Counted from the stretch's first letter, positions 2,408 to 64,000 are shown. The stretch: 64,000 nt of DNA from a virus (IMGVR_UViG_3300030376_006203:64001-128000); one strand, 5' to 3'. Program-made: numbers and translations. Notes: generated from the sequence alone by a model not told the origin.

Positions 2408-4188
2408 TATACTCCTCCAAATGATACCATTTGTCCTAGCACAACATATGAACTACTGACTTTTAATATTGTGAATGAGAAACTGTCTACACCGTTGGCT
2501 GTTCCTGTTGGCGCATTGTTGTTTTGCCATACGATAGTTTGTGCCGCACCACCAATTTGAACTGCTGTGATTTCGTGTGCTGTGTTACCTTGATCAATAA
2601 CTATTGTAAGGTTTGTTGCGTGTCCTGATGCCAAACCTAAATTTGTAAAGTTTGCTGTGATGTCTCCTGCTGTACTAGTGTGATAGAACATATGACCATC
2701 TGCACAATCATGAGCAACAACACCTGATTGACCTGTCAGTGCGTTGTATGATTCTTCAACACCTGCTGTGAACATTGTGCGTCCTTTGAGGTTAACACTT
2801 GTACCATTGCTTTCATTACCAATCAGTACGTCACCTATACCACTTGATTGACCTATATTGATTTGACCGTTGTTGGTTGAATCAAGTATCACATAGTTGC
2901 TAGCCTGTACGGTAACATTTCCACCTGTTGTAGTTAAACTGAGTGCGTATGGATTGATTGTAAAAGTACCTGAGTGTGTAAGACTGAATCCGGAAATAAC
3001 TGGACCACCTGCTATTTCAATATTGTCTTGGAATGATATCTGTGTGCTGTCGTCTGATCCAATCTGTGTGCCAGCAAAAGTTAAACCACCCACTGTACCA
3101 GTAGTTGATGTTAAATTTCCTGTAATGGTAATATCACCATTGCCTGTGATATCGTTGTTGTTTAAATCTAATGAGCCACCTAGTTGTGGAGTTGTATCCT
3201 GAAGGATATCTGTAATTCCACCACCACTCACAGTGTCAAATTCTAAAGCATTTTCACCAGCATTTACTTTGACAAATTTTCCTGCTTGTCCTGAAAAGTT
3301 TGCTGGAGTATCTGATAATGAAGCAAAAGCCTGTGCTGGTACTGAAGTCAAGTAACCTGAATCATTTGTGAATGTACTAATATTTGTTGGTGCTCCTGTC
3401 AAGTCAGCATATGCACCTGAAAACAAAGTTGGTTTGCCTGTTAAATCAGCATACGCACCAGAGAACAAAGATGGTGTGTTTGTAAAGTTATTGTAATCTA
3501 AATAGTAACTGGCATTTTGTCCACCTAAAGTTGTTGCTGTAATTCCAGTTAATGCTGATCCATCAATTGCCGGAAGAGCACCTGTAAGTGTTGTTGCGTT
3601 CAATGTGCCATTTACACTGTCAACTAATAATGTTGAGTCTGCCGCAACAATGTCTATTGAATGTGTTGAACCACTTGTCAATACTGAACTTGAAATAGCA
3701 TTGTCTACTTCAGTTTTTGTATAAGCATCTGAGATTCCATATCCTGATAATGTTGTTGGCTTACTTGTTAAATCTGCAAACGCACCTGAAAATAAAGTTG
3801 GCTTACCAGTTAAATCTGCATATGCACCTGAAAATAATGTAGGAGTGTTTGTAAAATTGTTATAGTCTAGATAATAACTTGCGTTCTGTCCACCAAATGT
3901 AGTTGTTGTGATTCCTGTCAATGCTGAACCATCTATTGCCGGCAGTGCACCGGATAAATTTGCTGAAGGTATTGTGCTGTTTATTCCATCAACCAGTAAT
4001 GTTGAATCGTCACCAAACACAGAACCTTTGATATCACCAGTTGTTACTGTGACACCACCTGTTTCAAGATTAGTTACTTTAAGAGAAAGTTCTGCGAAGT
4101 TATCATTAATCTTATCAAAGGCGGTTCTTAATGGTTCACCGTCACCCTTGTTTGGACTTGTACCAATATTGATAATTTGAATTGCCAT
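2407..4188 (-). CDS. tail fibre protein with T4 gp9/gp10-like N-terminus
   Basis: INIGTSPNKGDGEPLRTAFDKINDNF motif, DTTPQLGGSLDLN motif, internal YADLTGKPT repeats. Confidence 0.75.
   Translation of the reverse strand: MAIQIINIGTSPNKGDGEPLRTAFDKINDNFAELSLKVTNLETGGVTVTTGDIKGSVFGDDSTLLVDGINSTIPSANLSGALPAIDGSALTGITTTTFGGQNASYYLDYNNFTNTPTLFSGAYADLTGKPTLFSGAFADLTSKPTTLSGYGISDAYTKTEVDNAISSSVLTSGSTHSIDIVAADSTLLVDSVNGTLNATTLTGALPAIDGSALTGITATTLGGQNASYYLDYNNFTNTPSLFSGAYADLTGKPTLFSGAYADLTGAPTNISTFTNDSGYLTSVPAQAFASLSDTPANFSGQAGKFVKVNAGENALEFDTVSGGGITDILQDTTPQLGGSLDLNNNDITGNGDITITGNLTSTTGTVGGLTFAGTQIGSDDSTQISFQDNIEIAGGPVISGFSLTHSGTFTINPYALSLTTTGGNVTVQASNYVILDSTNNGQINIGQSSGIGDVLIGNESNGTSVNLKGRTMFTAGVEESYNALTGQSGVVAHDCADGHMFYHTSTAGDITANFTNLGLASGHATNLTIVIDQGNTAHEITAVQIGGAAQTIVWQNNNAPTGTANGVDSFSFTILKVSSSYVVLGQMVSFGGV
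3385..4014 (-). repeat. intragenic duplication of ~87 codons (3754-4014 and 3385-3645), each with tandem LFSGAYADLTGKPT units
   Basis: Near-identical peptide blocks GALPAIDGSALTGIT..GGQNASYYLDYNNFTNTP.LFSGAYADLTGKPT, offset by 369 nt. Confidence 0.9.
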
Positions 4189-7100
4189 TATACTCTACCT
4201 ACCACTGCTTCTATAACACCTTCTCCGGCATCTGTTTTGTTTTCTAATGCTTTACCTATCACTGTGCCTACTTTAGGATCAGTGCTTCTTGTAGCAAATC
4301 CTTTTGTGCTTGAACTTACCAACATATCACCTTTTTGTACAACACCAACAACTTTAACAGGAGTTCTTCCTGTCAATGCCACTGCTGTTACATTTTCACC
4401 TTCCAGTGAAGTATTCATTAAGTGTGCTGGATTTTCAGAAACAACACCTGCGACTCTTGTGTCGTCTCTTAATGATGTTGTGGTTACTTCTGCGTCACCA
4501 CCAAATATTAAAACTGTTCCCACTTCGTACTGATTGTCAGCAAGATAATTCTCAGCCAAGTCAGCATATTGAGCCTGCGTTGCTGTACCATCAAAAATTT
4601 CTGCGTATACATTTTTAAATCGTTTGCCAGATGATGAACCAATATCAATGTTATTATTTCCTGGAATTAAACCTTGTGCTGTTGCTATCACAGGAACAAC
4701 ACCATCTGCCACAAGTGCTATTTGACCTTCTGTAGATTCATCTAATCCTACAATGTATGGATTATCATTTCCTAATGCTATACCTGTAAAGTTAGCACCT
4801 TTACCTTCTGACTCAATATATTTTGTGTAGATGTAAGTTGAAGCCAATGCAGGATCTGTGTTTTGTGCTGATCCATTATCATTGCTTGGTGATGCTGAAG
4901 CATCTGCTCCGCCAAAACTAAATCTATTACCTGTAAATGTGTGTTGTGTATTATCTGTGTTAGAACCAATTACACCGTATGCTAAAACTCCACCTGGTGT
5001 AGAAACTTGAAGTGTAGAAGCAGAAGTGTCAAACACTAATGTGCCATCTAATGCTAATGAACTAACATCAAGTTGTCCGTTTGTATCAGTTTTAACAATA
5101 CTGTTGCCTTCACCTGTTTGTGAAACATTTGTGTAAGCATAAGTTGTAGCACCTGTTTTGATTAAAGCACTTCCTGGATCTGCCGCAACACCTACTTCTG
5201 CTACAAAATCTCCATCTTCTAAACCGCCACCAACTCCAACAATAGTAGAGAAAGCAACTGCCTCAGGAGCACCTGTACCTGCTGTTGACCTACCAAATGC
5301 AAATGAATTTGCCAGTTCAGGTAAGTCTGCTAAATCTACAGAAGCACTTTTTAATGTTACCCAACCGTTAGTAACTGTAAAGTCACCTGCATCAAAACTT
5401 GCTAAACCTAAATCTGCTTGAGTAATACCTGTGTCATTGGCTCTTGTTGTTGCCGCCTGCATTGCCAATTTACTTTGACTGATTGCCGCTGTTGGCGATA
5501 CATCTGCGTTTATGATTGAATCAGCATTAAGTTGGAAATTAATTGTTGTTTCAGAATTTGTTCTTGTGGCACTAACTGTGATATCTGATCCTGCATCTTC
5601 AACGCCGTTTCCAATTTCATAGATACCAGCATTAATCACATTGGCTGTGACACCAGAACCATTATCAATTAAATCATTTGTGTTAAAATCTGTACCACTT
5701 GTTAAATTGTAACTGATTCTTGTTGCTAGTCCATAACCTGGAACATTTTCTTGAATTAAATCATAGATTACACCAGTTGCGCCTGAGTTTGAACCAGTGA
5801 TTGTCATACCACCTGCAAACAGTCCACCGTTTGCTGGAGTTGTGAAAATTCTTCTAGCACCATTGTAAACTAATAATTGTCCTGCTGATGTTGGAGCAAG
5901 AATGTTTACATCTCTATTGTCAACTAATTCATCTGTGTCATAATTAACTTGGTCAACATAAGATTTTGTTGCCGCGTCTTGATCCACACCTGGATCTTGT
6001 AAATTTTGTATTTTAAATCCACCTGCTGAAATATTATCTGTGAATGGAGTTGAACCATCTCTTGCTAAAGCACCAGCACCAATTGGGTTACTTACTAATT
6101 GTCCTTGATGATCAAAATGTAATCTTCTGTTTACATATCCTCTAACAGCCGACTCAGTTGGCACTGTGTCAGATGAATTATCTGTCATTGCTGTGTCAGA
6201 TGAAAATTCTGCTACAACAACACCACGTTTAAATCCAATACCATCCAAGTTACTCAAAGCAATTGATGCCGAGAATGTTACAGAACCAGTACCTTGGTCA
6301 ACTGTGAAGAATTTACCAACACGGAAGAAACCGTCTTGGTCAGTTGACACGTAGAACACACGTCCTTTGCCACGTTCATCTACTTCGTATGCTTGAACTG
6401 GTGCTTGAGGATCACCATAAATTACATTCGGATAGTTTGTTGTGTTGAAACCACCTGTACCTATATCTAAGAAATCATGTCCAGTTGCTCTACAAGTTGA
6501 TATAGAAACTGTTAAAGTTCCTGTTTCGCCTGCGGCAAGGTTTGCTCTCAAGTTTACACTTTGATTTAATCTGTATACTGAACTGTGTAGACCTGTGCCA
6601 ATTGGAGTAGCATTTATATCATTTACATCCACAAGAGAAATTGTAGCATAAGTTGTTCTGTCTGTGTATCCTGTAATTCTGTGAACTTTACCATCCCAAC
6701 CAAATATCATGTCACCAGCATTTAATCTATTAATGTCTGATTGTTGTGTTAAAACATCAATAGCAATTACCACGTCACCCGGTGTATTACCCATTGTTGT
6801 TCCTGTGCCAGCATATGTGTTGTTGACTGCTTCAGTCATGTTAACATTCATTTTAACTGTGTCGAATGGAGAATCCATTCCAATGATTGCTTCATCATTT
6901 GCTAGAGCATTTCCAACCGAATCATTTGTTTGGAAAGAAACACTTCTGTAAACAGCATCTGTGTATTCATCAAACACAATCGCTGTTGATGGTCTTGTAG
7001 GTGAAACATCTTCTAAATCTTCAAACTTAAATGATCTAGATGATCTAACAGTTACAACTTGATCTGCTGTAAGAGCCTGTTTCAATCCACTTGTTGCTGT

Positions 7101-10100
7101 GTTGTCTGATCCACCTGTTCCTAAATTAACTTTGTAAACTGTGCCATCTCTTGTGGCTGGTTGACTTGGAGCCACTGTTGTTTCAATGTTTGTGACTTCA
7201 TATCTCACAATACCTGTTGAGCCACCGTGGTCAATTTCTACTTCTGAATTACTGTATGGTAAGAAATCAAAATCATATAGATATATTGCTGTTGATGAAG
7301 GTGGTTGAGCAAAATCTACTGTGCCATCATTAAACACAATGGCAGTTTGTGTCATGTTATCACTTAATGTGATGTTATCAATTTTTTCGTTTGGATTTGA
7401 ACCTTCAGCAACTAATCCATAATCACCATTTGCTGATGAACAGTTCAACGCACGAATTTGACCACCATCGTTGGCGTACATCGCTATGTGATTGTAATAA
7501 GTGAAAGTAGATACTTGTTCCGACAAACCTCCGTTTGTAGCAACAACACCATAACCTAAATCGTTAATCTGTACAAAGTCATTGGCAAGTAGAGATCTGT
7601 TACCTGCTGTTTGTACAATAATGTTGTAAGGTGTTGCGTATGTGCCATCCCAACCAGCACCGCTATTAGAACTTGCCGCTAATAAAAGTGTTGCTGTACC
7701 TAAACTTTGGTCATAATTTGTAATTGCCGCAACTTGATATCTTGCACCGTTTATATAGAAAGGTGCTGGCATTTGTGGTTTACGTAAAAATAAACCTGTG
7801 CCTGCCGCGGAAGTAACTTCAATACTGAATGCTGTATTAACTCCAGTGACTGCCATTTCAACGTTACCAGCATAACCATCAATGTACATACCACCTCTGA
7901 ATGATTTAGCATTAACACTTTGTGAAAATGAAGAAGCAGTTTGTGTGTATGGAGATTTTGTAAGCACTTGTCCATTTGGATCTAATACTTCAGCAAATCC
8001 ACCGTGTGCTTGGAACGTGATGTTTCTAACAACACTGGCATCGTTCATTAAGAACACATCCATTGCTCTGTTGTTTTTTGCTGTGTTATAAGCAGGATCA
8101 TTTGCTGGAACAGAAGTGTTAATTGGTTTTGTTACATCTTCAGCATAATGATATCCATATTCTTGTGTTCCTATTGTTAAACCATCAAAGGTTGTGTTTC
8201 TATAGAAATAAACATTTGCCCAAGGTGATTGTGAAACAGCATCTAAAGGTCGGATAATTGTTCTTCTAAATTCATCTCCTTTGATTGATGTGTTAGCAGG
8301 AATCTTAATAGGCATATGTTCTTCATATATGCCTGATTCTACTCTAATTGTAATCTGTTTATTTTTAACTTTATTTCCAAATTCTAATTCTTCACCAACT
8401 GTAAATACTTTTGGCTCACGTAAAAACATTGTAACTGTGTCGTCTGATCCACCTGCTGTTACAGAAACTATTTCACCTTTTGCTCCTGAAGTTTTACCAA
8501 CAATTATTTTACCTGGAACTAAATCTTTGTTGTTTGGTTGATTTTGATCAACATAACCTGTATTGCCATTTGAAATTGTTATTGTGTATGTGCTTCCATC
8601 AACTGATGATACAATATAATTGTAATCTTGAATAATACCTTTTACAATTTCAAATTTAGCATTCGCAGAATCTTTTCCTGATTGTGGAACAACTTTTGTA
8701 ATATCAATTGTTTGTGTTAAAACTTCTGGATATACTTTGTTGCCTAATGGACAACTCCAAGTAATATTGGCAACCTGTACAACATCACCAACCTGTGCAC
8801 CATGTCCTGTTCCTGTTGTGACTGTTACTATACCTGAATTGTTATCGTAAGTGGCTGTTGTAATGTTTACTGTGTTACCACCGAACGTAACTGTACCACC
8901 ACTCACATAAGTGTGAACGTAATTGTTTGCACCTGCGAATATTGTGAAAGTGTTTGAACTAAATGAATCTGAACGAACAGCAAATTTTCCTTGATACGTT
9001 GTTGCTGGTGCTGTGTTTGTTAAAATACTATTAACAATTAACCCTTGAGCAAAATTAATGGCACCCAATGTTTCAGTCAATTGTTGATTGATTGCTTTTA
9101 AACCACTATTGCTGTTGTAATATCTTTTACCTGCTTGAATAGATTGTGTGTTTGCTGTTAGTCCACTTAATACATCAATGACCACAGCATCTTGAATTAA
9201 TCCTACATCTCTTTTACAAGTTGCTATATTATATGTAAAGTTAGGATATGTGGCATTAACAAAAGCCACAGTTTCGTTTGTGATATAATCTTTGTTTGCC
9301 GCCATTAAAAATTCTAATTGCGTTTGATTTGAAGAACTTGTGATGCCTTCTGTTGTAACAGTAGAATTACCTGCGCCACTATTGAATGTTACTGTTTGTG
9401 CATATGGACCTGCTTCAAATGGTGCAGTATCAATAATTTGTTCTGCTCTTTCAGCCGCTTTAGAAATTGTTTTGTAAGCATAAGCCAATGATCTACCGTA
9501 TTTGTCTGCAGGTACTCCCTGCATTGTGTCATCACCATCTTGGCTTACAAATAAATTTGTTGTTGAAGCATATGATGTTGTGTCAACATAATATTTTGTT
9601 GCCGCTTGTAAATCATCAATGCCATTAGGTGTTCCGCCACCTGCTAAATCACCTGGATGATCATTTAGGTATAGTGCGCCAGTCATTTGGTCACCTTGAC
9701 GTCTTACTGCTGAAGTTCTTTGTATTGCTTCAGTTCCAAGATAATTTCCTGATAGTGAACTGTTATACGCACCATCTGTAATTGTTTGTGTTCCTGTTCC
9801 CCCTGAAACTGTAATTTTTATTCTTGTAGCATCATTATCATTTGTTGCTTCAGCGGCTGAGGCGTGTAAAGAAATTGTGTTGTCATCAATAAATCTAATG
9901 TAGTAAGATACTCCAGTTGATACATTGTTCGCATCATTGCCTGTTGAATTGTAAATGAATGGTAAACCGTTTGATGTTGTTGTAAAACCATGTGAAGGAA
10001 TATTTAAATTTCCACTTACATATGCTGTGATTGTTTTTACATACTCTGTTGCGTTTGCAGGTTCTGGTCTTACTCTTATCTCACCACCTACTCCACCAAC

Positions 10101-10583
10101 ACCTGAACTTCTTAAATATCTTCTGTCTGCGTAACCTTTATCAATCACAAGATCATCTAAAGTGATTGCTGTTCCATGTGTGCTGTTAAAATCATCTACT
10201 GCTGTTTGGCTTACACCAACATTTCCAATTGCATATGCATTGGCATTTAATGGACCACCCATGTCAGGATCAGTGTCTGTGCTTAAATCAATTGAACTGA
10301 CTGTAAGTAAAAGATTGTTTGGATCTGTAAAATCTACTGAAATACCTGTTCCAGATATTCCTTTCATCTCAATGGCTGTTCCAGCCGAATTGGATATAGG
10401 AATTTTGTTTGCTCCTAATTGATCAGGTGTATCACTTAATGATGTAAAACCTATCTGTCCACCTTGACCAAATACAGCATAAAGTTCTGTAAAATTTTCA
10501 TTGGATTTGTTGAACGCATCTCTGATACTATCGCCTGTACCGTCGTTCCCTTCTATACCAATATTAATAAACTGTTTAGCCAT
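4188..10583 (-). CDS. large baseplate wedge/tail fibre protein (2131 aa) with C-terminal intramolecular chaperone-like domain
   Basis: gp9/10-like N-terminus (INIGIEGNDGTGDSIRDAFNKSNENF), HDFLDIGTG/VSTDQDGFFRVG motifs of marine myovirus structural proteins, and a C-terminal YADLAENY...GKALE peptidase G2/IMC-like domain. Confidence 0.8.
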   Translation of the reverse strand: MAKQFINIGIEGNDGTGDSIRDAFNKSNENFTELYAVFGQGGQIGFTSLSDTPDQLGANKIPISNSAGTAIEMKGISGTGISVDFTDPNNLLLTVSSIDLSTDTDPDMGGPLNANAYAIGNVGVSQTAVDDFNSTHGTAITLDDLVIDKGYADRRYLRSSGVGGVGGEIRVRPEPANATEYVKTITAYVSGNLNIPSHGFTTTSNGLPFIYNSTGNDANNVSTGVSYYIRFIDDNTISLHASAAEATNDNDATRIKITVSGGTGTQTITDGAYNSSLSGNYLGTEAIQRTSAVRRQGDQMTGALYLNDHPGDLAGGGTPNGIDDLQAATKYYVDTTSYASTTNLFVSQDGDDTMQGVPADKYGRSLAYAYKTISKAAERAEQIIDTAPFEAGPYAQTVTFNSGAGNSTVTTEGITSSSNQTQLEFLMAANKDYITNETVAFVNATYPNFTYNIATCKRDVGLIQDAVVIDVLSGLTANTQSIQAGKRYYNSNSGLKAINQQLTETLGAINFAQGLIVNSILTNTAPATTYQGKFAVRSDSFSSNTFTIFAGANNYVHTYVSGGTVTFGGNTVNITTATYDNNSGIVTVTTGTGHGAQVGDVVQVANITWSCPLGNKVYPEVLTQTIDITKVVPQSGKDSANAKFEIVKGIIQDYNYIVSSVDGSTYTITISNGNTGYVDQNQPNNKDLVPGKIIVGKTSGAKGEIVSVTAGGSDDTVTMFLREPKVFTVGEELEFGNKVKNKQITIRVESGIYEEHMPIKIPANTSIKGDEFRRTIIRPLDAVSQSPWANVYFYRNTTFDGLTIGTQEYGYHYAEDVTKPINTSVPANDPAYNTAKNNRAMDVFLMNDASVVRNITFQAHGGFAEVLDPNGQVLTKSPYTQTASSFSQSVNAKSFRGGMYIDGYAGNVEMAVTGVNTAFSIEVTSAAGTGLFLRKPQMPAPFYINGARYQVAAITNYDQSLGTATLLLAASSNSGAGWDGTYATPYNIIVQTAGNRSLLANDFVQINDLGYGVVATNGGLSEQVSTFTYYNHIAMYANDGGQIRALNCSSANGDYGLVAEGSNPNEKIDNITLSDNMTQTAIVFNDGTVDFAQPPSSTAIYLYDFDFLPYSNSEVEIDHGGSTGIVRYEVTNIETTVAPSQPATRDGTVYKVNLGTGGSDNTATSGLKQALTADQVVTVRSSRSFKFEDLEDVSPTRPSTAIVFDEYTDAVYRSVSFQTNDSVGNALANDEAIIGMDSPFDTVKMNVNMTEAVNNTYAGTGTTMGNTPGDVVIAIDVLTQQSDINRLNAGDMIFGWDGKVHRITGYTDRTTYATISLVDVNDINATPIGTGLHSSVYRLNQSVNLRANLAAGETGTLTVSISTCRATGHDFLDIGTGGFNTTNYPNVIYGDPQAPVQAYEVDERGKGRVFYVSTDQDGFFRVGKFFTVDQGTGSVTFSASIALSNLDGIGFKRGVVVAEFSSDTAMTDNSSDTVPTESAVRGYVNRRLHFDHQGQLVSNPIGAGALARDGSTPFTDNISAGGFKIQNLQDPGVDQDAATKSYVDQVNYDTDELVDNRDVNILAPTSAGQLLVYNGARRIFTTPANGGLFAGGMTITGSNSGATGVIYDLIQENVPGYGLATRISYNLTSGTDFNTNDLIDNGSGVTANVINAGIYEIGNGVEDAGSDITVSATRTNSETTINFQLNADSIINADVSPTAAISQSKLAMQAATTRANDTGITQADLGLASFDAGDFTVTNGWVTLKSASVDLADLPELANSFAFGRSTAGTGAPEAVAFSTIVGVGGGLEDGDFVAEVGVAADPGSALIKTGATTYAYTNVSQTGEGNSIVKTDTNGQLDVSSLALDGTLVFDTSASTLQVSTPGGVLAYGVIGSNTDNTQHTFTGNRFSFGGADASASPSNDNGSAQNTDPALASTYIYTKYIESEGKGANFTGIALGNDNPYIVGLDESTEGQIALVADGVVPVIATAQGLIPGNNNIDIGSSSGKRFKNVYAEIFDGTATQAQYADLAENYLADNQYEVGTVLIFGGDAEVTTTSLRDDTRVAGVVSENPAHLMNTSLEGENVTAVALTGRTPVKVVGVVQKGDMLVSSSTKGFATRSTDPKVGTVIGKALENKTDAGEGVIEAVVGRV

Positions 10584-57069: not shown

Positions 57070-57077
57070 TATAAATA
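57070..57077 (+). promoter_or_regulatory. T4-type late promoter
   Basis: Exact TATAAATA 11 nt upstream of ATG 57089; the TAAATA core precedes many other genes. Confidence 0.7.
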
Positions 57078-57088
57078 CATATATTATT

Positions 57089-57367
57089 ATGAACTTTTTA
57101 CAATTTGTATCAGAAGTAGGATTTCCAATAGCAGGTGCTGTGGCATCTGGTGTGTTCATATTCATCATTTTAAAATTTATATTAGCCACTGTGACAGGGT
57201 CTGTGAATGGTCTTAAAAACATCATTAAAGCACTGGACAACAGAGTTCAGACCATGAACAATGATCTAATTAAGATTGATGCTTTGCTTTCACACGTGAC
57301 TGGAGTCAAACCCAATGTTGATAGACTTGCCGCCAACGAAGGCAAGGAAGATGCGAGGAAAGACTAG
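57089..57367 (+). CDS. small single-TM protein, paralogue A
   Basis: VGFPIAGA TM, then ALDNRVQTMNNDLIKID. Confidence 0.7.
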   Translation: MNFLQFVSEVGFPIAGAVASGVFIFIILKFILATVTGSVNGLKNIIKALDNRVQTMNNDLIKIDALLSHVTGVKPNVDRLAANEGKEDARKD

Positions 57368-57634
57368 ATGATCACACTTGAATTTGCCAACGCAATCAAA
57401 GAATTTGGATTCCCTATTGTAGCCGCATTTGGTTTGGGTTACTTTGTTTACTATGTGTGGACTTGGGTAACCAAAGAAATAAAACCTGTATTGGGCGAAG
57501 CCAACACAACACTGATAGCACTCATAGATAGAATAAGAATGTTAGACAATGACATGATACGTTTAACACAAAAGTTAAACATGGTGCTTGAACACAAAGA
57601 AAAGCAAGACAAGAAAAAATCTAAGAAGACTTAA
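57368..57634 (+). CDS. small single-TM protein, paralogue B
   Basis: FGFPIVAA TM, then ALIDRIRMLDNDMIRL. Confidence 0.7.
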   Translation: MITLEFANAIKEFGFPIVAAFGLGYFVYYVWTWVTKEIKPVLGEANTTLIALIDRIRMLDNDMIRLTQKLNMVLEHKEKQDKKKSKKT

Positions 57635-59552
57635 CAGTATATACTTTAATATTCTCAGTCTTACCTTTGACTGTGATGCTGTCTATATAATCAAACGGGT
57701 AAACAGTTTCAATGGTGTGTCTTGTGTCCTCACCTATCACTATGGTCTTGCCTAATGTTTTGCTTGAACTTTCTAATCTACTTGCTAGGTTAACTGCGTC
57801 ACCAATCACTGAGTAATCAAATCTCTGTTCCGATCCCATGTTACCAACCAATGCGTCACCTGTATTGATTCCTATCCCTATGTTTATTTGAGGAAGTCCT
57901 TCTGCTTGAAGACGTACATTTAATTCTGCTAGTGCCTTAGTCATCTCAAGAGCACTCTTAACTGCCATCTCTCTATGTTTTTTATTTTCAATAGGTGCGT
58001 TCCAGAATGCCATGATACAGTCACCCATGAACTTGTCTATGGTTCCACCATTTGATATTATCACATCTGTCATGCGTGTTAAGAATCTGTTAATCAATTT
58101 TGTTAGTCCTGCTGGATTGCCTTTGTACTTCTCACTGATAGGTGTGAAGCCTCTGATGTCACAGAACAAGAATGTCATGTTCCTTGTTTCGCCACCCAGT
58201 TTCAACAGAGATGGATCCTTCTGTAATTTTTTAACCATGCCAGGATCAAGATAGTGTTCAAACTGTTTCTTAATTTGTTGTCGCAGTCTGCTCTGTGTGG
58301 CAAAATTATTGTACACAGAATGAGACCAAATCAAAAACACAGACAACATTATCCAAGATGGATCTACAAGAAATCCTCTGTTGGTGTATGCCATGAATGA
58401 TCCGTAGGCAACACCTACTTCCACAAACAACAATAGAGGCACAGCCAACAACACACTGGTTCTAGGTAATACCATTATCAACAATAATAGTAACAGTGCC
58501 ATAAACACAATTTCATAAGTGTCTGCTTGAGGTGTACGCAACAAATATTTGTCTGTGAGTAAAGTATCTAATGCTTGGGCAGTTATGTTCTGATCTGTTG
58601 TAAGTCCGTGTGGTGTATATTTTAACACACTCAATCCCGCGGCATCTAAACCAACAATCACAATTCTATTTTTTATTTTGTTTTCATTGTAATTGCCTGA
58701 AAGAATATCACTTGCTGTCATATTCACATACATTGTAGGATCAGCATAGTTGATATACATTTCTGCATGATGATTCACAGGTATGCCTGCTTTTTTACTC
58801 ACAAGCACTTCATCTATGCCATGTTGTTTGGCTACAACTTTAATTCTTTTTGAATTGTTTAACAACCTAACATTTTCTAATATCATGCTGGGATAAATTT
58901 TTCCATTTATTCTAATCAACACAGGCATTTTTCTTACCACAGCATCTGGTTCTGGTGATGTTACATTTACTCCCATACCAGTGGCACCTGCTGAGACTTT
59001 TGCGTGTGGAGAAACAATGCCACCAAACTCATACAACCATGGTTTGACATTGCCCTTTTCGATAATCTTTGTGGTGCTGGGTAAATTTGTATCAGACTCA
59101 TTTTTCACACTCATCATGAGTACTGCTTTATTTGATTCTTTCAACACTATAGAAAACACAGCATCTGTATCCAATAAAATATTACTCAATTGATCCCGCA
59201 CATCATTAGTCATGGGCATTGATTTTAAATATTCAACGCCACTCATTCTATCTGGTTCAGCAAATAATATATTGTAGTTCACAAGTATGGCACCAGCATC
59301 AGACAGTTTAGCATGAAGCATAGCCATTATGTGTCTGGGCCATGGCCATTGCCCATATGTTTTTAAATCTTGTTCTGTGATGTTTACCACAGTGACTGAA
59401 TCACTTACAATCTGTCTTGGTTGTATTGTTTGAAATTTGTCCCATGTCTTGTATCTTAAAATTTTTATTGTGTCACTGTTGTCTATTCTTATTCCAGTCA
59501 ACACTATGGCAAACACAATCACCATCCATATGCTTGTTAAAAATTTATTCAT
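57621..59552 (-). CDS. CHASE2-domain class III adenylate cyclase
   Basis: GQWPWPR, FAEPDR and DAVVRK.P (CHASE2); three TMs; FCDIRGFT, DKFMGDCIM, GIGINTG, RFDYSVIGDAVNLASRLE and VKGK. Confidence 0.93.
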   Translation of the reverse strand: MNKFLTSIWMVIVFAIVLTGIRIDNSDTIKILRYKTWDKFQTIQPRQIVSDSVTVVNITEQDLKTYGQWPWPRHIMAMLHAKLSDAGAILVNYNILFAEPDRMSGVEYLKSMPMTNDVRDQLSNILLDTDAVFSIVLKESNKAVLMMSVKNESDTNLPSTTKIIEKGNVKPWLYEFGGIVSPHAKVSAGATGMGVNVTSPEPDAVVRKMPVLIRINGKIYPSMILENVRLLNNSKRIKVVAKQHGIDEVLVSKKAGIPVNHHAEMYINYADPTMYVNMTASDILSGNYNENKIKNRIVIVGLDAAGLSVLKYTPHGLTTDQNITAQALDTLLTDKYLLRTPQADTYEIVFMALLLLLLIMVLPRTSVLLAVPLLLFVEVGVAYGSFMAYTNRGFLVDPSWIMLSVFLIWSHSVYNNFATQSRLRQQIKKQFEHYLDPGMVKKLQKDPSLLKLGGETRNMTFLFCDIRGFTPISEKYKGNPAGLTKLINRFLTRMTDVIISNGGTIDKFMGDCIMAFWNAPIENKKHREMAVKSALEMTKALAELNVRLQAEGLPQINIGIGINTGDALVGNMGSEQRFDYSVIGDAVNLASRLESSSKTLGKTIVIGEDTRHTIETVYPFDYIDSITVKGKTENIKVYTVKSS

Positions 59553-59914
59553 CCTAATTCTTTCAGTCCTTCAAGTATGCCAATTGATACGCCAAAGAAC
59601 AGTGAAAGTCCTAACATTATCACAGGACTTAATAACCACAAGTACCAGTAGTAACGAAATATATTCTGTCCTCTTGCCAATCTTATTTTACGTTGATCCA
59701 AAAACCAATGCACTATTCTTTTTATAAAGCCTTTGATATGTTTGTTTACAAATTTATTCAACAACCAACGTATCACTCTCATCACAATCAGTATGGGAGA
59801 ACTCAGCACATCAAACACAATCAGGAACACATCAACACTGAAGTCTACAATGTTGTCTGCTGTGCAGGCTTTCTTCCATCTCTCTTTAAGTGTAAGTTTC
59901 TTTTGTTCTTCCAT
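59549..59914 (-). CDS. membrane protein
   Basis: Two hydrophobic segments; coupled between HlyD and the cyclase. Confidence 0.65.
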   Translation of the reverse strand: MEEQKKLTLKERWKKACTADNIVDFSVDVFLIVFDVLSSPILIVMRVIRWLLNKFVNKHIKGFIKRIVHWFLDQRKIRLARGQNIFRYYWYLWLLSPVIMLGLSLFFGVSIGILEGLKELG

Positions 59915-59915
59915 T

Positions 59916-60641
59916 TTATCTTTCTTGTAGTGCTTGACCAATGCTGTTATGGAATGGTGTTGTAATATAACTTAAAATTGTTCGCTCTCCAGTCAAAACA
60001 AAAACGTGTACCTGTACACCCGGCACCAACTTATACTGCATTTCTCCATTGGCAAAAGCCTGAGAATCTAATTCTAATTCTATTTCATAGTAAGACATTG
60101 TTTGTTTTTGTACAGCATCAGGCGATATAGATATTATCTTTGCTCCTATAGGAAGATATGTAAATGCTTCAGAACTTGCCAATTTTATTTTTGCTGATTG
60201 TCCTACTTCAACATAACCTCTGTCTTTAACTTGTAATTGTCCTTGAACAATTAATTTTTGATCTAGTGGTACCAACACTGCCAAAGCATCACCTTGTTTA
60301 ACAACTGATCCTGGATTTTTAAACGTAAGTTCTTGTATCTTTCCATCTATGTTTGCTTTGATATGATAAGGTTCATAGCCTACACCTGGATTGATTGTGA
60401 TTATGATGTCGCCTTTGTTGACCACATCTCCTTGTTTGTGATTTACTTTTACAATCTCTCCTGTAACCATGGTGCCAAGTGTTGTAATATTTTTCTCAGG
60501 TACAACCAGTCCATTGGCAACAGTGGTTATGTCAACTTTAGAAAATGACATCCACACAAAGAACACAACAAATAGACTTGTCAACAAGACAAAGAATTTA
60601 TTGTTTGATGAAACTGATGATTTCTGTTGTTGCTCTATCAC
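59916..60641 (-). CDS. HlyD/AprE-family T1SS membrane fusion protein lacking the alpha-helical hairpin
   Basis: N-terminal TM, lipoyl halves GDVVNKGDII / IKANIDGKI, ISPDA and LVPG...TGERTILSYITTP...ALQER; GTG start after AAGGAGG. Confidence 0.85.
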   Translation of the reverse strand: MIEQQQKSSVSSNNKFFVLLTSLFVVFFVWMSFSKVDITTVANGLVVPEKNITTLGTMVTGEIVKVNHKQGDVVNKGDIIITINPGVGYEPYHIKANIDGKIQELTFKNPGSVVKQGDALAVLVPLDQKLIVQGQLQVKDRGYVEVGQSAKIKLASSEAFTYLPIGAKIISISPDAVQKQTMSYYEIELELDSQAFANGEMQYKLVPGVQVHVFVLTGERTILSYITTPFHNSIGQALQER

Positions 60642-61350
60642 GTTGTTTTATTGCCTCCTTTGCTTTGGCATATTTGTTAGCACCTTGCAGTGCTCTTGCC
60701 GCCAATATGTTTGAACCTATTAGTAGTCCCACATCCAATGAGCCTGCGATAATTTGTGTCGCACCTACTGACATAATAACCACTGTCATAAGTCCTGTTA
60801 AAAATATTTCTAAATTTGTTGTGCTGTGAATCTGCAGGCTTAGGTTCATTCGTTGTGCTGTCAACACTATCATTATAATCATGAATATAGCCGCAATTAT
60901 TGCCGCTGTCCAATTTATGTACAGCAACACAATAAGAAATGCCAACACGAATGGCCAATCTAGAATCCAACCGGTTGTGGCTGATGTCCTCATATTTTTT
61001 ATTGTTGTGCCTGCACCATCCAACTTTTTATATTGCTCGGCTGTGAGTTGTCCTGCTTTGCTGAATTTTTCTCCAAATGCTTTCAACAGAGGATCGTAAA
61101 CACGTTGGTTGTGTGCTGTCATCATTGCGCCTCTATTCTGTCTGAATCCAAATTCAAACGCCAGCAACATAATGGCTCCCATAGCCAAAGATATTAATGT
61201 TGATGTAACTCCTGATGCTAGATATTTGTTTAACACAATTATCACAAACAACGCAGGTGCCAAGGCACAGATGTTGATGATCAAACTGCTTGTTAATAGC
61301 ATTATAGCATTCGATTTATCGCGGAATAACTGTCGTAAAAAACTTGTCAT
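60598..61350 (-). CDS. T1SS ABC exporter transmembrane domain only (no NBD)
   Basis: S.IINI.ALA.ALFVI.VL, TL.SL, FEF.FR, LD.PF and G.L.VG.LIG.NILA.RAL (LapB/LssB-like); ends just after TM6. Confidence 0.8.
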   Translation of the reverse strand: MTSFLRQLFRDKSNAIMLLTSSLIINICALAPALFVIIVLNKYLASGVTSTLISLAMGAIMLLAFEFGFRQNRGAMMTAHNQRVYDPLLKAFGEKFSKAGQLTAEQYKKLDGAGTTIKNMRTSATTGWILDWPFVLAFLIVLLYINWTAAIIAAIFMIIMIVLTAQRMNLSLQIHSTTNLEIFLTGLMTVVIMSVGATQIIAGSLDVGLLIGSNILAARALQGANKYAKAKEAIKQRDRATTEIISFIKQ

Positions 61351-61378
61351 ATATAGTAGTATTTAATTGATTTGGTAA

Positions 61379-63115
61379 TTAAAGAAGTGGGTCCACAAGA
61401 CCTAACACCTTGTGCAGTTGATATCTAGCAATCTGCCAATCTATCAATGCGTTGGCATAGGCAACTTCACTCATTATGTGTGCTGTCTTCATGCCAAACA
61501 CAGCCATGATAGGTGAATTTCCTGCTTGAAAATCTGCCAGTGTCAATTTGTACATTTCATCGTTGATTTCAACTGTTCTTTTCAAAGTAGCCAGATTCTT
61601 TTCAACCAACACATAATTGTTCCAAGCATTATCAAACTGTTCTTGTGTGGTTCTTAACACATCCGTATATCTAAAGTTTGCGGCATTCAAACGAGAACGG
61701 TCTGCGTTTGTCAAGTGTCTGTTTTTAAAATTAAACAGTTTCCATGTCATTGTGATGTCTGCTCTCCACTCTTCTTTTTGTGAATTATGTGTGTCATAAC
61801 CACCACCTAGTTCACCGTCCTTCTCTGTGTATGAAAGTTTGCCGTCAACTCTAGGTTTGAATTCCGCACGGTCAAAATTTAATTGTTCTTGAGCAATCGT
61901 GATATCCATGCTGGCAATACGCAGTGTGGTATTATTGGACACTGGAGTTCCTTGTACAGGAATCATGCCCAATGCATCCACTAAAGGTTTTGGCATACCT
62001 GCGATGTTGTGTGGCTTGAATCTCCAAACGTTTTGGAATCTCTGTATCGCACTATCAAGACCTAGTCTGCTTGTCATTGAAAGTGTTTGATATGTTCTGT
62101 ATTGTTGTTCTATTTGCAGTTGTTCCAATTTAGAACCTTCACCTTTTTTAACTTTTTCTATTGTCATAGCAAGTGTAACTTTAGCATTGGCTTCTACTTT
62201 TTTATTGGCTTCGTGTGTGTTGTATGCTTTCATCAAGTTTAACCAAGCATTGATTGCCTCAATGATCACATCTTCTTTTACCAGTTCTAATCTGTAGTGT
62301 GCCTGTTGAGCAGTTGCTTTGGCTTTGTCTATCATGGCATTGGTTCTGCCTGCGTCCCAAATCATTTGTGTGATTGTGATTGACTTTTGAATACCTTGTT
62401 TAGAATCATGTGTGATTGTGTTGTTGGGATATGTACCTTTAGCAGGAGTTCTGTCGTCTTCCCAGTTGTTGCCAATTGATATAGAAACTTGCGGATAGTA
62501 TGCTGTGTATTCTGATTTGAGTGCCTCAACAGCCGCTTCGTAATCAAGTTCTGCCGCTTTGATCTTTTCGTTCTCAACAATCAGTCTTGGTAACAATTCA
62601 TGAAACTGCATCCATGTAATTTTTTGATCAGCATCAACATCAGCCCATTCTTTTTCAGTAGCCTGTTCTACCAATTTCTCATCTGCTTTGGCATCTATTT
62701 CTTTTTTAGCAATTTCTTTTTTTACTTCAGGCTTCTGTGTTTCTTCAACAGATGTTTCTGCCAGTTTCTTTTTCTCAATGTGTTCTTTAACTTTGTCTTC
62801 TGTTGCTATTACTTCTTTTTCAATTTTTTCTAACTTTTCTACCTTCTCTGTGGCTTTGGGAGCCTCTTCAACTTTGTCTTTGAATTTCTTTATGGGATTT
62901 TCTTTTTTCTTTTTGGGTGCTTCAACTATCTCTATGGTTAATCCTTCCACAGGTTTGGATCTAATCCTTGCTTGATTATCACCACACTTCTCTTGGATAT
63001 AAGTTTCTGTTTCCTCAACCACTTCCCATTCACAACCTCCACTGTCTTCCGCAAAGACGGCTATGTTCCAATTGAACATAATTGCTATCAAAATGTAGTG
63101 TACGAGTTTGTTCAT
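61379..63115 (-). CDS. tolC: TolC-family outer membrane channel with N-terminal E/K-rich extension
   Basis: Signal peptide; YYPQVS, ITQMIWDAGRT, KGEGSKLE, FKPRVD, WKLFN, FQAG.SPI and YQL...LG repeats. Confidence 0.85.
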   Translation of the reverse strand: MNKLVHYILIAIMFNWNIAVFAEDSGGCEWEVVEETETYIQEKCGDNQARIRSKPVEGLTIEIVEAPKKKKENPIKKFKDKVEEAPKATEKVEKLEKIEKEVIATEDKVKEHIEKKKLAETSVEETQKPEVKKEIAKKEIDAKADEKLVEQATEKEWADVDADQKITWMQFHELLPRLIVENEKIKAAELDYEAAVEALKSEYTAYYPQVSISIGNNWEDDRTPAKGTYPNNTITHDSKQGIQKSITITQMIWDAGRTNAMIDKAKATAQQAHYRLELVKEDVIIEAINAWLNLMKAYNTHEANKKVEANAKVTLAMTIEKVKKGEGSKLEQLQIEQQYRTYQTLSMTSRLGLDSAIQRFQNVWRFKPHNIAGMPKPLVDALGMIPVQGTPVSNNTTLRIASMDITIAQEQLNFDRAEFKPRVDGKLSYTEKDGELGGGYDTHNSQKEEWRADITMTWKLFNFKNRHLTNADRSRLNAANFRYTDVLRTTQEQFDNAWNNYVLVEKNLATLKRTVEINDEMYKLTLADFQAGNSPIMAVFGMKTAHIMSEVAYANALIDWQIARYQLHKVLGLVDPLL

Positions 63116-63134
63116 TATATACCTATATTTAGCA

Positions 63135-64000
63135 TTATCCAGAAACCACCACTTCTGAGATCAATGCTGACTCTGTCTCGATCAGTGCGTAGTTGATGTC
63201 ATCAAATTGTGAGAAATTACTCAGGTCAAGATATGCGTTGTAGCCTGTGGTGTTTGCGACCGTGACTGTGTTGCCGATCTCCACTGACCAACTGCCACCG
63301 CTGTATGTGACCGGTGTCACTTTGAAAGAGTAGTCGCCTGTGGCATCAGAGTCCTGTGTCAGATAGTCCTCTGAGTCATCCAGGATCTTGATCTTGTCCA
63401 GATTGAAAGTGTCAGTGGTCTCCCAAAGGTCACCGTCTCCGTCCCTATCGTATCCTATCACACCATAGTGGTCATCCGCCTGTGTGGGTGTTGGTCCGGC
63501 GTCCATGTCTGTGTTGAAGGCCCAATATACAGAGTCCGCCGAGTCATCCCACACAAGGTCAATGTGGTCCATACCACCACCGATGTACACGTTGTTGCCC
63601 AGGTGTATGGCCTCAACAGCGGTGATGTCGTTCTCTGCGGTGTGCGTTCCTGAGCCAACTGTGTCTCTGAATACTGGAATGAATTCCGAGTCAACCACTA
63701 TGCCTGCACCGTCGGATTCTGTCATTGCGTCCTCGTTCTGTTCTTGAAGCCACGTGGCAATTTCCTTGTGGTGATTCGTACTTCCGATGTAACCCGAAGA
63801 ACTGTGACCGTCGATGTCACCCCAGGCAAGGAATGTTCCTGTGTATTCTGCTTCTGTGTCCTCTCTGCTCCATTCCGCTATCGCACCCTCATTGCCGTCA
63901 CCGTTTGAGGAAACTAGATCTCCCCTACCCATGTATTCCTTGTGATAGACTGATGTGGAACCTCCCACAGTTGCACTCAACACACTATTGGTGTCACTCC
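63135..64000 (-). CDS. C-terminal part of a large acidic D/G/T-rich protein (5' end off window); candidate secreted substrate/adhesin
   Basis: Frame is open to the window edge; DRDGDGD Ca-binding-like motif; visibly higher GC than the rest of the window. Confidence 0.65.
   Translation of the reverse strand, partial: SDTNSVLSATVGGSTSVYHKEYMGRGDLVSSNGDGNEGAIAEWSREDTEAEYTGTFLAWGDIDGHSSSGYIGSTNHHKEIATWLQEQNEDAMTESDGAGIVVDSEFIPVFRDTVGSGTHTAENDITAVEAIHLGNNVYIGGGMDHIDLVWDDSADSVYWAFNTDMDAGPTPTQADDHYGVIGYDRDGDGDLWETTDTFNLDKIKILDDSEDYLTQDSDATGDYSFKVTPVTYSGGSWSVEIGNTVTVANTTGYNAYLDLSNFSQFDDINYALIETESALISEVVVSG

Follow-up and report, generated by a model that had tools for sequence, protein, structure and literature searches.

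A reduced, phage-borne type I secretion-like cassette linked to a CHASE2 adenylate cyclase and a predicted surface adhesin

A module that joins curli secretion (type VIII secretion system, T8SS), a FecR-type protein and an adenylate cyclase has been published in pelagiphages (Wittmers et al. 2022, PMC9599517; Zaragoza-Solas et al. 2020, PMC7029224); TolC and type I secretion go unmentioned in both papers. RIN, the periplasmic domain at the N-terminus of the Marinomonas ice-binding adhesin MpIBP (PDB 5ix9), is too big to go through TolC and was proposed as a general plug that holds Lap-type adhesins on the cell (PMC5550230); it was also used as the template for the LapA retention module (bioRxiv 10.1101/198937). 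In Burkholderiales, a FecR-domain protein encoded beside a CHASE2 sensor is a recurrent pairing (PMC5192318). SbmA has an ABC-exporter-like transmembrane domain (TMD) that runs without a nucleotide-binding domain (NBD) on the proton gradient (PMC8442886, PMC13316013), and BesA is the hairpin-less adaptor of a working TolC-type pump (PMC3807786). Here we describe a phage cassette of six genes. It lies at the end of a 64,000-nucleotide stretch of DNA (hereafter the window), i.e. bases 64001-128000 of the linear 148-kb IMG/VR virus record IMGVR_UViG_3300030376_006203, which CheckV rates as 41% complete.

The cassette appears to be a phage-borne, reduced derivative of a bacterial "type I secretion system (T1SS) adhesin plus CHASE2 cyclase" system, whose parts are tightly and anciently linked. 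We base this on the domain identities of the genes, on what two of them have lost, on their linkage and on the selection acting on them. The preliminary description of the window had proposed a reduced T1SS-derived apparatus linked to a CHASE2 cyclase, and this is upheld by synteny in phage contigs and by purifying selection; its remark that T1SSs are not expected in phages is out of date, since the sister curli-FecR-cyclase module is published (PMC9599517). Six co-oriented minus-strand open reading frames (ORFs) occupy positions 57621-64000 and continue beyond the end of the window, in the order giant protein (1299 amino acids, aa), TolC (578 aa), TMD (250 aa), HlyD (241 aa), a 130-aa protein and CHASE2 cyclase (643 aa). 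All of the ORFs lie where they had first been placed, and their Pfam and PHROG names agree with the names given from the sequence. The overlaps reported for the last four genes were measured as 44 nt (TMD/HlyD), 26 nt (HlyD/130-aa gene) and 4 nt (130-aa gene/cyclase, shared by the stop and start codons), and the spacer between TolC and the TMD is 28 nt. Genes of phage type lie on both sides of the cassette, encoding ribonucleotide reductase, DNA ligase, a tail-spike-like protein and a virion structural protein. The features are as follows.

63135-64000, minus strand: C-terminal 287 aa of the giant acidic protein, a predicted adhesin; the whole gene (L003:136-4035, minus strand; protein P0001) would occupy window positions 63135-67034
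63126-63131, minus strand: promoter-like TAAATA motif, 10 nt ahead of the TolC start codon
61379-63115, minus strand: TolC-family outer-membrane duct, 578 aa (two OEP repeats, E 3.5e-51)
61360-61365, minus strand: promoter-like TAAATA motif, 9 nt ahead of the TMD start codon
60598-61350, minus strand: TMD only of an ABC exporter of PrtD/LapB/HlyB type, 250 aa (PHROG phrog_2392)
59916-60641, minus strand: HlyD-family adaptor, 241 aa (HlyD_3, Biotin_lipoyl_2)
59549-59941, minus strand: basic membrane protein with two transmembrane segments (TMs), 130 aa, without a family in Pfam or PHROG
57621-59552, minus strand: CHASE2 sensor adenylate cyclase, 643 aa (Pfam CHASE2 and Guanylate_cyc)

Compared with the parts list of a T1SS, the cassette has a TolC-family duct, an ABC protein that lacks the NBD and a membrane fusion protein (MFP) that lacks the TolC-reaching alpha-helical hairpin. 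The sole match of the 250-aa TMD is to the PHROG "ABC transporter" family (E 2.7e-14), and Pfam alone does not recognise it (PF00664 weak, E 0.15). Aligned with PrtD/LapB-type T1SS ABC proteins of ~560 aa, the TMD keeps TM1-TM4 and TM5-TM6, lacks ~56 residues of intracellular loop 2 (ICL2) including the coupling helix, and ends where the NBD linker begins. The TM6 residues G203, G208, I211, G212, N214-L216 and R219 are invariant between short and full-length forms, and the AlphaFold model of the TMD (pLDDT 82.8) is nearest to HlyB (8dck_A, TMq 0.73) and PrtD (5l22, TMq 0.70). The HlyD-like protein matches HlyD_3 at E 1.8e-17 and aligns with E. coli HlyD (8dck_C) in two blocks, with residues 22-90 corresponding to HlyD 66-133 and residues 94-241 to HlyD 330-478; the alpha-helical hairpin (~196 residues, HlyD ~134-329) has therefore been excised. 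What remains is collinear with hairpin-less BesA (4kks) and comprises the TM anchor, the lipoyl halves, the beta-barrel and a cytoplasmic tail of only ~20 residues. In these alignments both proteins are cleanly reduced, not broken, which bears out the earlier statement that the two inner components have lost the parts needed for ATP-driven export. The ATPase, the coupling loop and the TolC-reaching hairpin appear to have been lost as a set, so that transport would not be ATP-driven by the phage parts.

The giant protein extends ~3 kb past the window. It consists of a head (residues 1-190), an E-rich extender (~200-600), a cadherin domain (757-840) and an acidic C-terminus without K and R, with Pfam matches to FecR (43-139) and Cadherin (757-840). 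It had been noted as an acidic large protein, and indeed it contains 23% D+E versus 5% K+R (~300 acidic and ~70 basic residues). It has neither Cys nor a signal peptide, and this copy has no RTX nonapeptide; there is one in the phage homologue L031 and there are six in the bacterial homologue L050. The absence of a signal peptide and of Cys, the acidic C-terminus and the RTX repeats in homologues are hallmarks of T1SS substrates, and the giant protein is predicted to be secreted. The model of the head has a pLDDT of 90, and its top PDB matches are the PupR CCSSD 6ovk (E 3e-4), the FecR-type anti-sigma factors 4m0n/4m0h, and 5ix9, i.e. RIN. Foldseek aligned the head to 5ix9_A with 36% identity over 61 columns (TMt 0.72), and a head profile built from 17 phage and bacterial sequences matched 5ix9 at E 5.2e-11, as expected of a Lap/MpIBP retention domain. 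The head is also 36% identical (E 2e-31) to the FecR protein of Pelagibacter phage HTVC008M. Because the head is homologous to the RIN plug, the giant protein would be a retained adhesin of the Lap/MpIBP class with a FecR-fold head. By domain homology it is a Lap/MpIBP-type T1SS adhesin and the key part of the cassette, its export being predicted. The preliminary description had treated it as a bystander, a view that has to be abandoned. Placing a Lap/MpIBP-type adhesin in such a cassette is new; the sister curli-FecR-cyclase phage module, T1SSs and Lap-type adhesins were known.

The TolC protein has a signal peptide and, in phages, a conserved N-terminal addition (residues ~23-185) in which a C-x15-C module is followed by a K/E-rich stretch of ~150 aa (46% charged K/E residues, variable length). 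In the alignment the counterparts from bacterial clusters (429-436 aa) are without the K/E-rich extension. It may be, and this is speculation, that the extension acts as a bridge replacing the lost hairpin. No TolC homologue was found by tblastn in 50,697 isolate phage records, and megablast of the region against isolate phages returned no match.

The cyclase (Pfam CHASE2, E 2e-39; Guanylate_cyc, E 1e-22) has an N-terminal TM, a periplasmic CHASE2 domain (~23-345), three TMs and a class III catalytic domain, whose nearest solved relatives are a phytochrome-adenylate cyclase fusion (6fht) and CyaB (3r5g). In the alignment with these two structures the motifs FCDIRGF, DKFMGD, GINTG and GDAVNLASRLES are found, and the metal, substrate (K...T) and transition-state (N, R) residues of a CHASE2-class III cyclase are all present; the catalytic site is intact. 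The CHASE2 sensor half diverges much faster than the catalytic half (34% versus 74% identity between the cyclases of the window and of locus L171), which suggests a mosaic gene with a recombination boundary inside it and fast turnover of the sensor. Across 11 related cassettes, whose pairs are non-independent, the sensor half shows distances correlated with TolC, HlyD, TMD and head distances (r 0.5-0.8), and the catalytic half shows no such correlation with any other cassette gene (r about 0). By these correlations the periplasmic half belongs with the envelope parts, a hint that it was inherited together with them. The 130-aa protein encoded immediately upstream is virus-only; it is present in many cassettes of the sub-lineage and absent from L127, L138, L144, L151, L154, L162 and L166, and its Atlas neighbours are viral hypotheticals throughout.

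The cassette is carried by a widespread group of large marine phages that are uncultured. The 249-250-aa form of the TMD makes up 838 protein clusters in public data, and the order giant protein, TolC, TMD, short HlyD, (130-aa protein), cyclase was found in every related viral or metagenome contig with enough upstream DNA, and it recurs in dozens of contigs that were assembled independently from many samples. An exhaustive profile-free search traced short TMDs down to 27% identity, and in three deep lineages (L034, L036 and L038; TMD identity 27-39%) TolC, TMD, short HlyD and CHASE2 follow each other again. In the TMD tree the 13 short TMDs fall on one side of a branch with SH-aLRT 89 (95 for 12 of them), as would be expected if the loss occurred once and the short form was then kept for long. 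Median dN/dS values (pairwise Nei-Gojobori, dS ~1-1.6) were 0.076 for TolC, 0.114 for TMD, 0.069 for HlyD, 0.146 for the 130-aa gene and 0.084 for the cyclase; these five genes, i.e. the cassette other than the giant gene, are under strong purifying selection. The cyclase was found in 270 viral contigs, those listed being split into a T1SS type and a curli type, and in L144, L167 and L170 modules of both types adjoin one cyclase. Two contigs of the "Rickettsiales bacterium MED657" metagenome-assembled genome (MAG), L041 and L042 (NZHE01000025.1 and NZHE01000018.1), carry the phage-type cassette with a short TMD that is 63% identical. Probably these are contigs of phages that ended up in the bin of a host-like genome, and as such they are a possible clue to the host. 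The TMD tree did not identify a host, the phage clade lying in a polytomy with Pelagibacteraceae, CHASE2-linked Desulfobacterota and other clades, so it is the ranking of HlyD identities and the MAG binning alone that hint at SAR11-like hosts.

Full-length versions of the same arrangement occur in bacteria. In L097, a Desulfovibrionales MAG, TolC (429 aa) is followed by a protein with FecR, Ig/cadherin and RTX regions (924 aa), an ABC protein with its NBD (559 aa), an HlyD with its hairpin (427 aa) and a CHASE2 cyclase (732 aa); L084, L086, L090 and L120 also encode the cyclase, and twelve Rhodospirillaceae-type loci encode a FecR-headed RTX protein. The bacterial clusters (L097, L084, L086, L090 and L120, with Rhodospirillaceae L044-L053) share the gene set of the phage cassette in near-identical order, with heads that are 31-43% identical and cyclases that are 25-28% identical in the sensor half and 39-47% in the catalytic half. 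They differ in having a complete ABC ATPase, a hairpin-bearing HlyD and a TolC without the K/E-rich extension, and would represent the ancestral design of the phage cassette. In the literature we found no paper joining CHASE2 and type I secretion, nor any on these bacterial clusters or the phage module. A separate arrangement was seen in L109, the Pelagibacteraceae single-cell genome AG-919-C04, where TolC, a 2958-aa giant protein, ABC (548 aa), HlyD (401 aa) and an inverse-autotransporter beta-domain protein follow each other; here a streamlined SAR11 genome encodes a T1SS that is complete and has a giant substrate.

We searched for the missing motor. No NBD (PF00005) is present in the 148-kb record, and in nine related fragments (43-172 kb) the sole true ABC ATPase is SufC, other P-loop matches being weak and sub-threshold. 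Had a separate cognate NBD and a full-length MFP existed elsewhere in the genome, the cassette would be an ordinary T1SS, as the preliminary description pointed out; neither was found in the 148 kb of the record or in the nine fragments, although at CheckV completeness of 7-47% a distant gene is possible. These completeness values imply genomes of roughly 350 kb, and hence room for a distant NBD, against which the parallel loss of the coupling loop argues. The closest full-length ABC proteins (P0137 and P0134) are on short contigs without useful context. Searches of the 148-kb record for the LapG protease (PF06035) and for CsgG (PF03783), but not for LapD, found neither, so that the record does not show the CsgG/CsgF channel of a T8SS. 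As a side observation, the relative G006 (L200, IMGVR_UViG_3300007512_001547, 6596-10057) has genes for SufB, a SufE-like protein and SufC (whose score of 344 bits exceeds the curated cut-off) and, directly after them, a gene for a TonB-dependent, BtuB-like receptor, which would be a phage-borne Fe-S assembly set with an outer-membrane receptor.

The sequence TAAATA was present at the two positions reported earlier, ahead of TolC and the TMD, and also ahead of the giant gene; the "late" function then given to it is an interpretation. Across the window it lies within 45 nt upstream of 19 of the 73 minus-strand gene starts (a crude count), including those of structural-type genes, compared with 1.4 +/- 1.2 in random windows, a contrast that AT-rich spacers inflate. 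TAAATA is therefore a candidate promoter element of the phage, for which a late-promoter role may be suggested. It often occurs as GATAAATA or CTAAATA. Examples of TAAATA ahead of gene starts are 56953, 54807, 50949, 47607 and 45512. The strict T4 late box TATAAATA was rejected as a signal, as it is not enriched (1 found versus 5.3 expected); the sole perfect copy in the window is at 57070-57077, by two small plus-strand genes described below. Two marine metatranscriptomic runs of one study contain contigs that match stretches of the cyclase, TMD/HlyD, TolC and giant genes at 99-100% identity. Such contigs are weak RNA evidence and no proof of transcription, as DNA carry-over is possible, and gaps in their coverage carry no meaning.

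From these results we propose that the giant protein is a surface adhesin that is retained on the cell, and that its periplasmic head is read by the CHASE2 cyclase, a reading to which we give a probability of roughly 50% and in which export, retention, contact and energy source are what we infer. The cassette would be expressed together with the late and structural genes, as the TAAATA motifs suggest, and the 1299-aa polyanionic adhesin of the Lap/MpIBP class would be its export substrate. The chain would leave C-terminus first, passing a channel that consists of a TMD-only dimer encircled by the short HlyD and next the phage TolC; the extender and the cadherin part would fold outside in the calcium of seawater. 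The FecR/PupR-fold head with its RIN plug would be too large for TolC and would be held in the periplasm, by analogy with LapA and MpIBP. There it might be read by the periplasmic CHASE2 domain, such that occupancy, load or loss of the fibre alters cytoplasmic cyclic AMP (cAMP) synthesis, a step suggested by the linkage of the genes. As to energy, the least strained alternative, by analogy with SbmA, is that the membrane potential electrophoretically threads the acidic chain and calcium-dependent folding outside acts as a ratchet. In this way the phage can probably display a fibre on the cell it infects and read that fibre from within. The idea of a trans-envelope sensor feeding cAMP signalling, put forward from the sequence, is strengthened by the periplasmic-plug head and by the recurrent FecR-CHASE2 pairing without thereby being shown; the roles suggested with it, superinfection sensing and lysis timing, are speculation and found no support. 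The boldest form of our proposal, i.e. a first ATP-free type I secretion, driven by potential and calcium folding, in which the TMD alone, the adaptor lacking its hairpin and the lengthened TolC export and retain the polyanionic adhesin, together with a FecR-fold head as the partner of CHASE2, making a fibre-to-cAMP mechanosensor on a dying host, is an improbable one.

Several points weigh against the retained, cyclase-read adhesin. The contact between head and CHASE2 is derived from gene linkage only, and in L171 and L174 the CHASE2 sensor is 34-37% identical to that of the window while the head stays 72% identical, which is not the pattern that a tight, specific head-sensor interface would give. 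The distance correlations come from related cassettes with non-independent pairs. To our knowledge, ATP-independent type I secretion is without precedent, and the loss of the hairpin leaves both a sealed path to TolC and the opening of TolC unexplained. In the window's copy of the giant protein no RTX nonapeptide can be recognised. Nothing fills the output side, as no cyclic nucleotide monophosphate-binding domain (PF00027) was found in six records (~750 kb of related phage DNA). Finally, SAR11 cells have a T1SS of their own, and if this is true of the host, transport may be the work of host components. A complex prediction for CHASE2 (23-345) and the head (1-190), made from custom alignments, gave "no answer" (score 0.00) and weighs neither way.

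The last of the points against the proposal leads to an alternative, which we consider unlikely, in which the ABC protein and MFP of a host T1SS export the phage adhesin and the phage supplies only adhesin and TolC duct. The phage TMD and HlyD would then form no channel and would instead mix into, dock beside or, once secretion is over, succeed the host inner-membrane complex, e.g. by holding the head and signalling its state to the cyclase. Pelagibacteraceae single-cell genomes do carry the necessary genes (the TolC, 2958-aa giant, 548-aa ABC and 401-aa HlyD run described above), the phage HlyD is closest to Pelagibacteraceae HlyDs (40-42% identity versus 32-37% for most other bacteria), cassette contigs L041 and L042 were binned into a "Rickettsiales" marine MAG, and the adhesin retains T1SS-substrate hallmarks that a motor-bearing system could recognise. 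However, this explanation depends on a host that neither the TMD tree nor the binning pins down, and the phage TMDs branch outside the Pelagibacteraceae clade. A heterodimer with a single NBD should be inactive, bacteria with a FecR-headed substrate use dedicated full-length pumps, and it is hard to explain in this way why three phage envelope genes are kept under strong selection across lineages that are 27% identical.

It is also conceivable, if distinctly doubtful, that nothing is exported and that the TMD and HlyD are a fossil pump serving as a platform for the CHASE2 cyclase, with TolC as an open window to the medium and the giant protein acting elsewhere or freed only at lysis. This would account for the loss of precisely the energy-coupling and TolC-reaching parts, for the co-variation of the CHASE2 half, which is no weaker with TolC, HlyD and TMD than with the head, and for a CHASE2 sensor that can be swapped without a matching change in the head. 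It does not account for the giant gene, which is always first in the cassette in both phages and bacteria, for a head whose homologues are a TolC plug and the Sec-exported FecR head of the curli-type module, which would be senseless in a cytoplasmic protein, or for the pore-lining TM6 residues of working exporters, which are invariant in the short forms.

A very unlikely possibility is that the cassette only remodels the surface, either by coating or aggregating infected cells (sibling capture, superinfection exclusion) or by using TolC as a solute pore, and that the cyclase is an independent host-takeover gene. Such functions were proposed for the sister curli module (PMC7029224, PMC9599517), the cadherin domain and the long extender suit an adhesin, and the catalytic domain recombines independently of the rest. 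The cyclase is, however, tied to a FecR-type head and an outer-membrane channel in two unrelated contexts, TolC and CsgG, and in bacteria as well; TolC and CsgG modules both flank one cyclase in L144, L167 and L170, and the stop of the 130-aa gene and the start of the cyclase gene overlap by 4 nt. Although the record is a linear fragment and its components look truncated, a host-derived chimera, a misassembly or a set of dying pseudogenes, which the preliminary description had allowed for, is excluded in practice because the same order recurs in dozens of independent contigs, the 249-250-aa TMD forms 838 clusters, dN/dS is 0.07-0.15 at dS ~1-1.6 with no sign of relaxed selection, and phage genes lie on both sides.

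Two further plus-strand genes lie next to the cyclase gene.

57089-57367 and 57368-57634, plus strand: two tandem paralogous proteins with a single TM and a coiled coil, both phrog_18771

Both match phrog_18771 at E 1e-30 and converge on the cyclase, as had been observed before, and the paralogues are kept downstream of the cyclase in L031 and L033. Their suggested membership in the system is not supported, as nothing ties them to it. Upstream of the giant gene there is a conserved block (L003:4824-9172, which would be window positions 67823-72171) that encodes two 2OG-Fe(II) oxygenases, a DUF454 protein, a class I/II aminotransferase, an AlgH-like DUF179 protein and an AdoMet decarboxylase, in an order that matches L031 and L032. 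The largest ORF of the window (2131 aa) is on the minus strand at 4188-10583.

If the retained-adhesin proposal is correct, phages that are abundant in the sea remodel the envelope of their host by adding a secretion-anchored fibre and connect it to second-messenger signalling. We know of no ligand for CHASE2, a widespread sensor domain, and the FecR/RIN head would be a concrete and testable partner for it. The cassette would also be a natural minimal T1SS from which motor, coupling loop and hairpin have been removed while selection is still strong, i.e. a natural experiment on the remaining parts. The same design in bacteria points to an uncharacterised system there.

The cassette can be compared with three described T1SS or T8SS designs. 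With the E. coli HlyB-HlyD-TolC system (7SGR/8DCK) and PrtD (5L22) it shares the TMD fold, the lipoyl and beta-barrel domains of HlyD (E 8e-20) and a TolC-family duct, and it differs in having no C39-like domain, ICL2 or NBD and an HlyD without the hairpin and most of the cytoplasmic tail. SbmA/BacA (SLiPT) and BesA are functional analogies only: SbmA shows no detectable sequence relationship to the TMD and is a peptide importer, and BesA serves an RND pump, unlike the cassette parts. The likeness to the Lap and MpIBP systems (LapA-LapEBC-LapD/LapG of P. fluorescens; MpIBP of Marinomonas primoryensis) is broader, comprising a giant T1SS adhesin with a RIN-type plug, a long extender and a ligand domain of the calcium type, a dedicated TolC, an ABC lineage of LapB type without the C39 domain, and a second-messenger protein in the cluster. 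Unlike them, the cassette has no NBD, no MFP hairpin and no LapG found in the record, and its plug sits within a larger FecR/PupR-fold domain. Moreover, the Lap messenger protein is a cyclic di-GMP receptor that works inside-out, whereas that of the cassette is a CHASE2 adenylate cyclase, which suggests outside-in signalling.

The phage curli module provides the remaining comparison. In Pelagibacter phage HTVC008M and the Methylophilales Melnitz phages a homologous cyclase ends CsgF-CsgG-curlin-FecR-curlin operons, and their FecR proteins consist of a Sec signal peptide followed directly by a head homologous to that of the giant protein. Both modules pair a FecR-type head (36%, E 2e-31) with a CHASE2 cyclase (32-35% identity; 34.5% over 99% of the length to HTVC008M), and both combine an outer-membrane secretion channel with a fibre or adhesin in marine phages. 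They differ in the channel, which is TolC plus a T1SS-derived inner-membrane pair in the cassette and CsgG/CsgF in the curli module, and in the head, which in the cassette is fused to a 1299-aa substrate without a signal peptide and in the curli module is part of a Sec-exported FecR protein of 369 aa. Sec export places the curli-module head in the periplasm, where CHASE2 lies, and the same location would be expected for the cassette head. The curli-type and T1SS-type phage modules would therefore be joined under one logic, their common denominator being an outer-membrane secretion channel, a FecR-type head expected in the periplasm and a CHASE2 cyclase.

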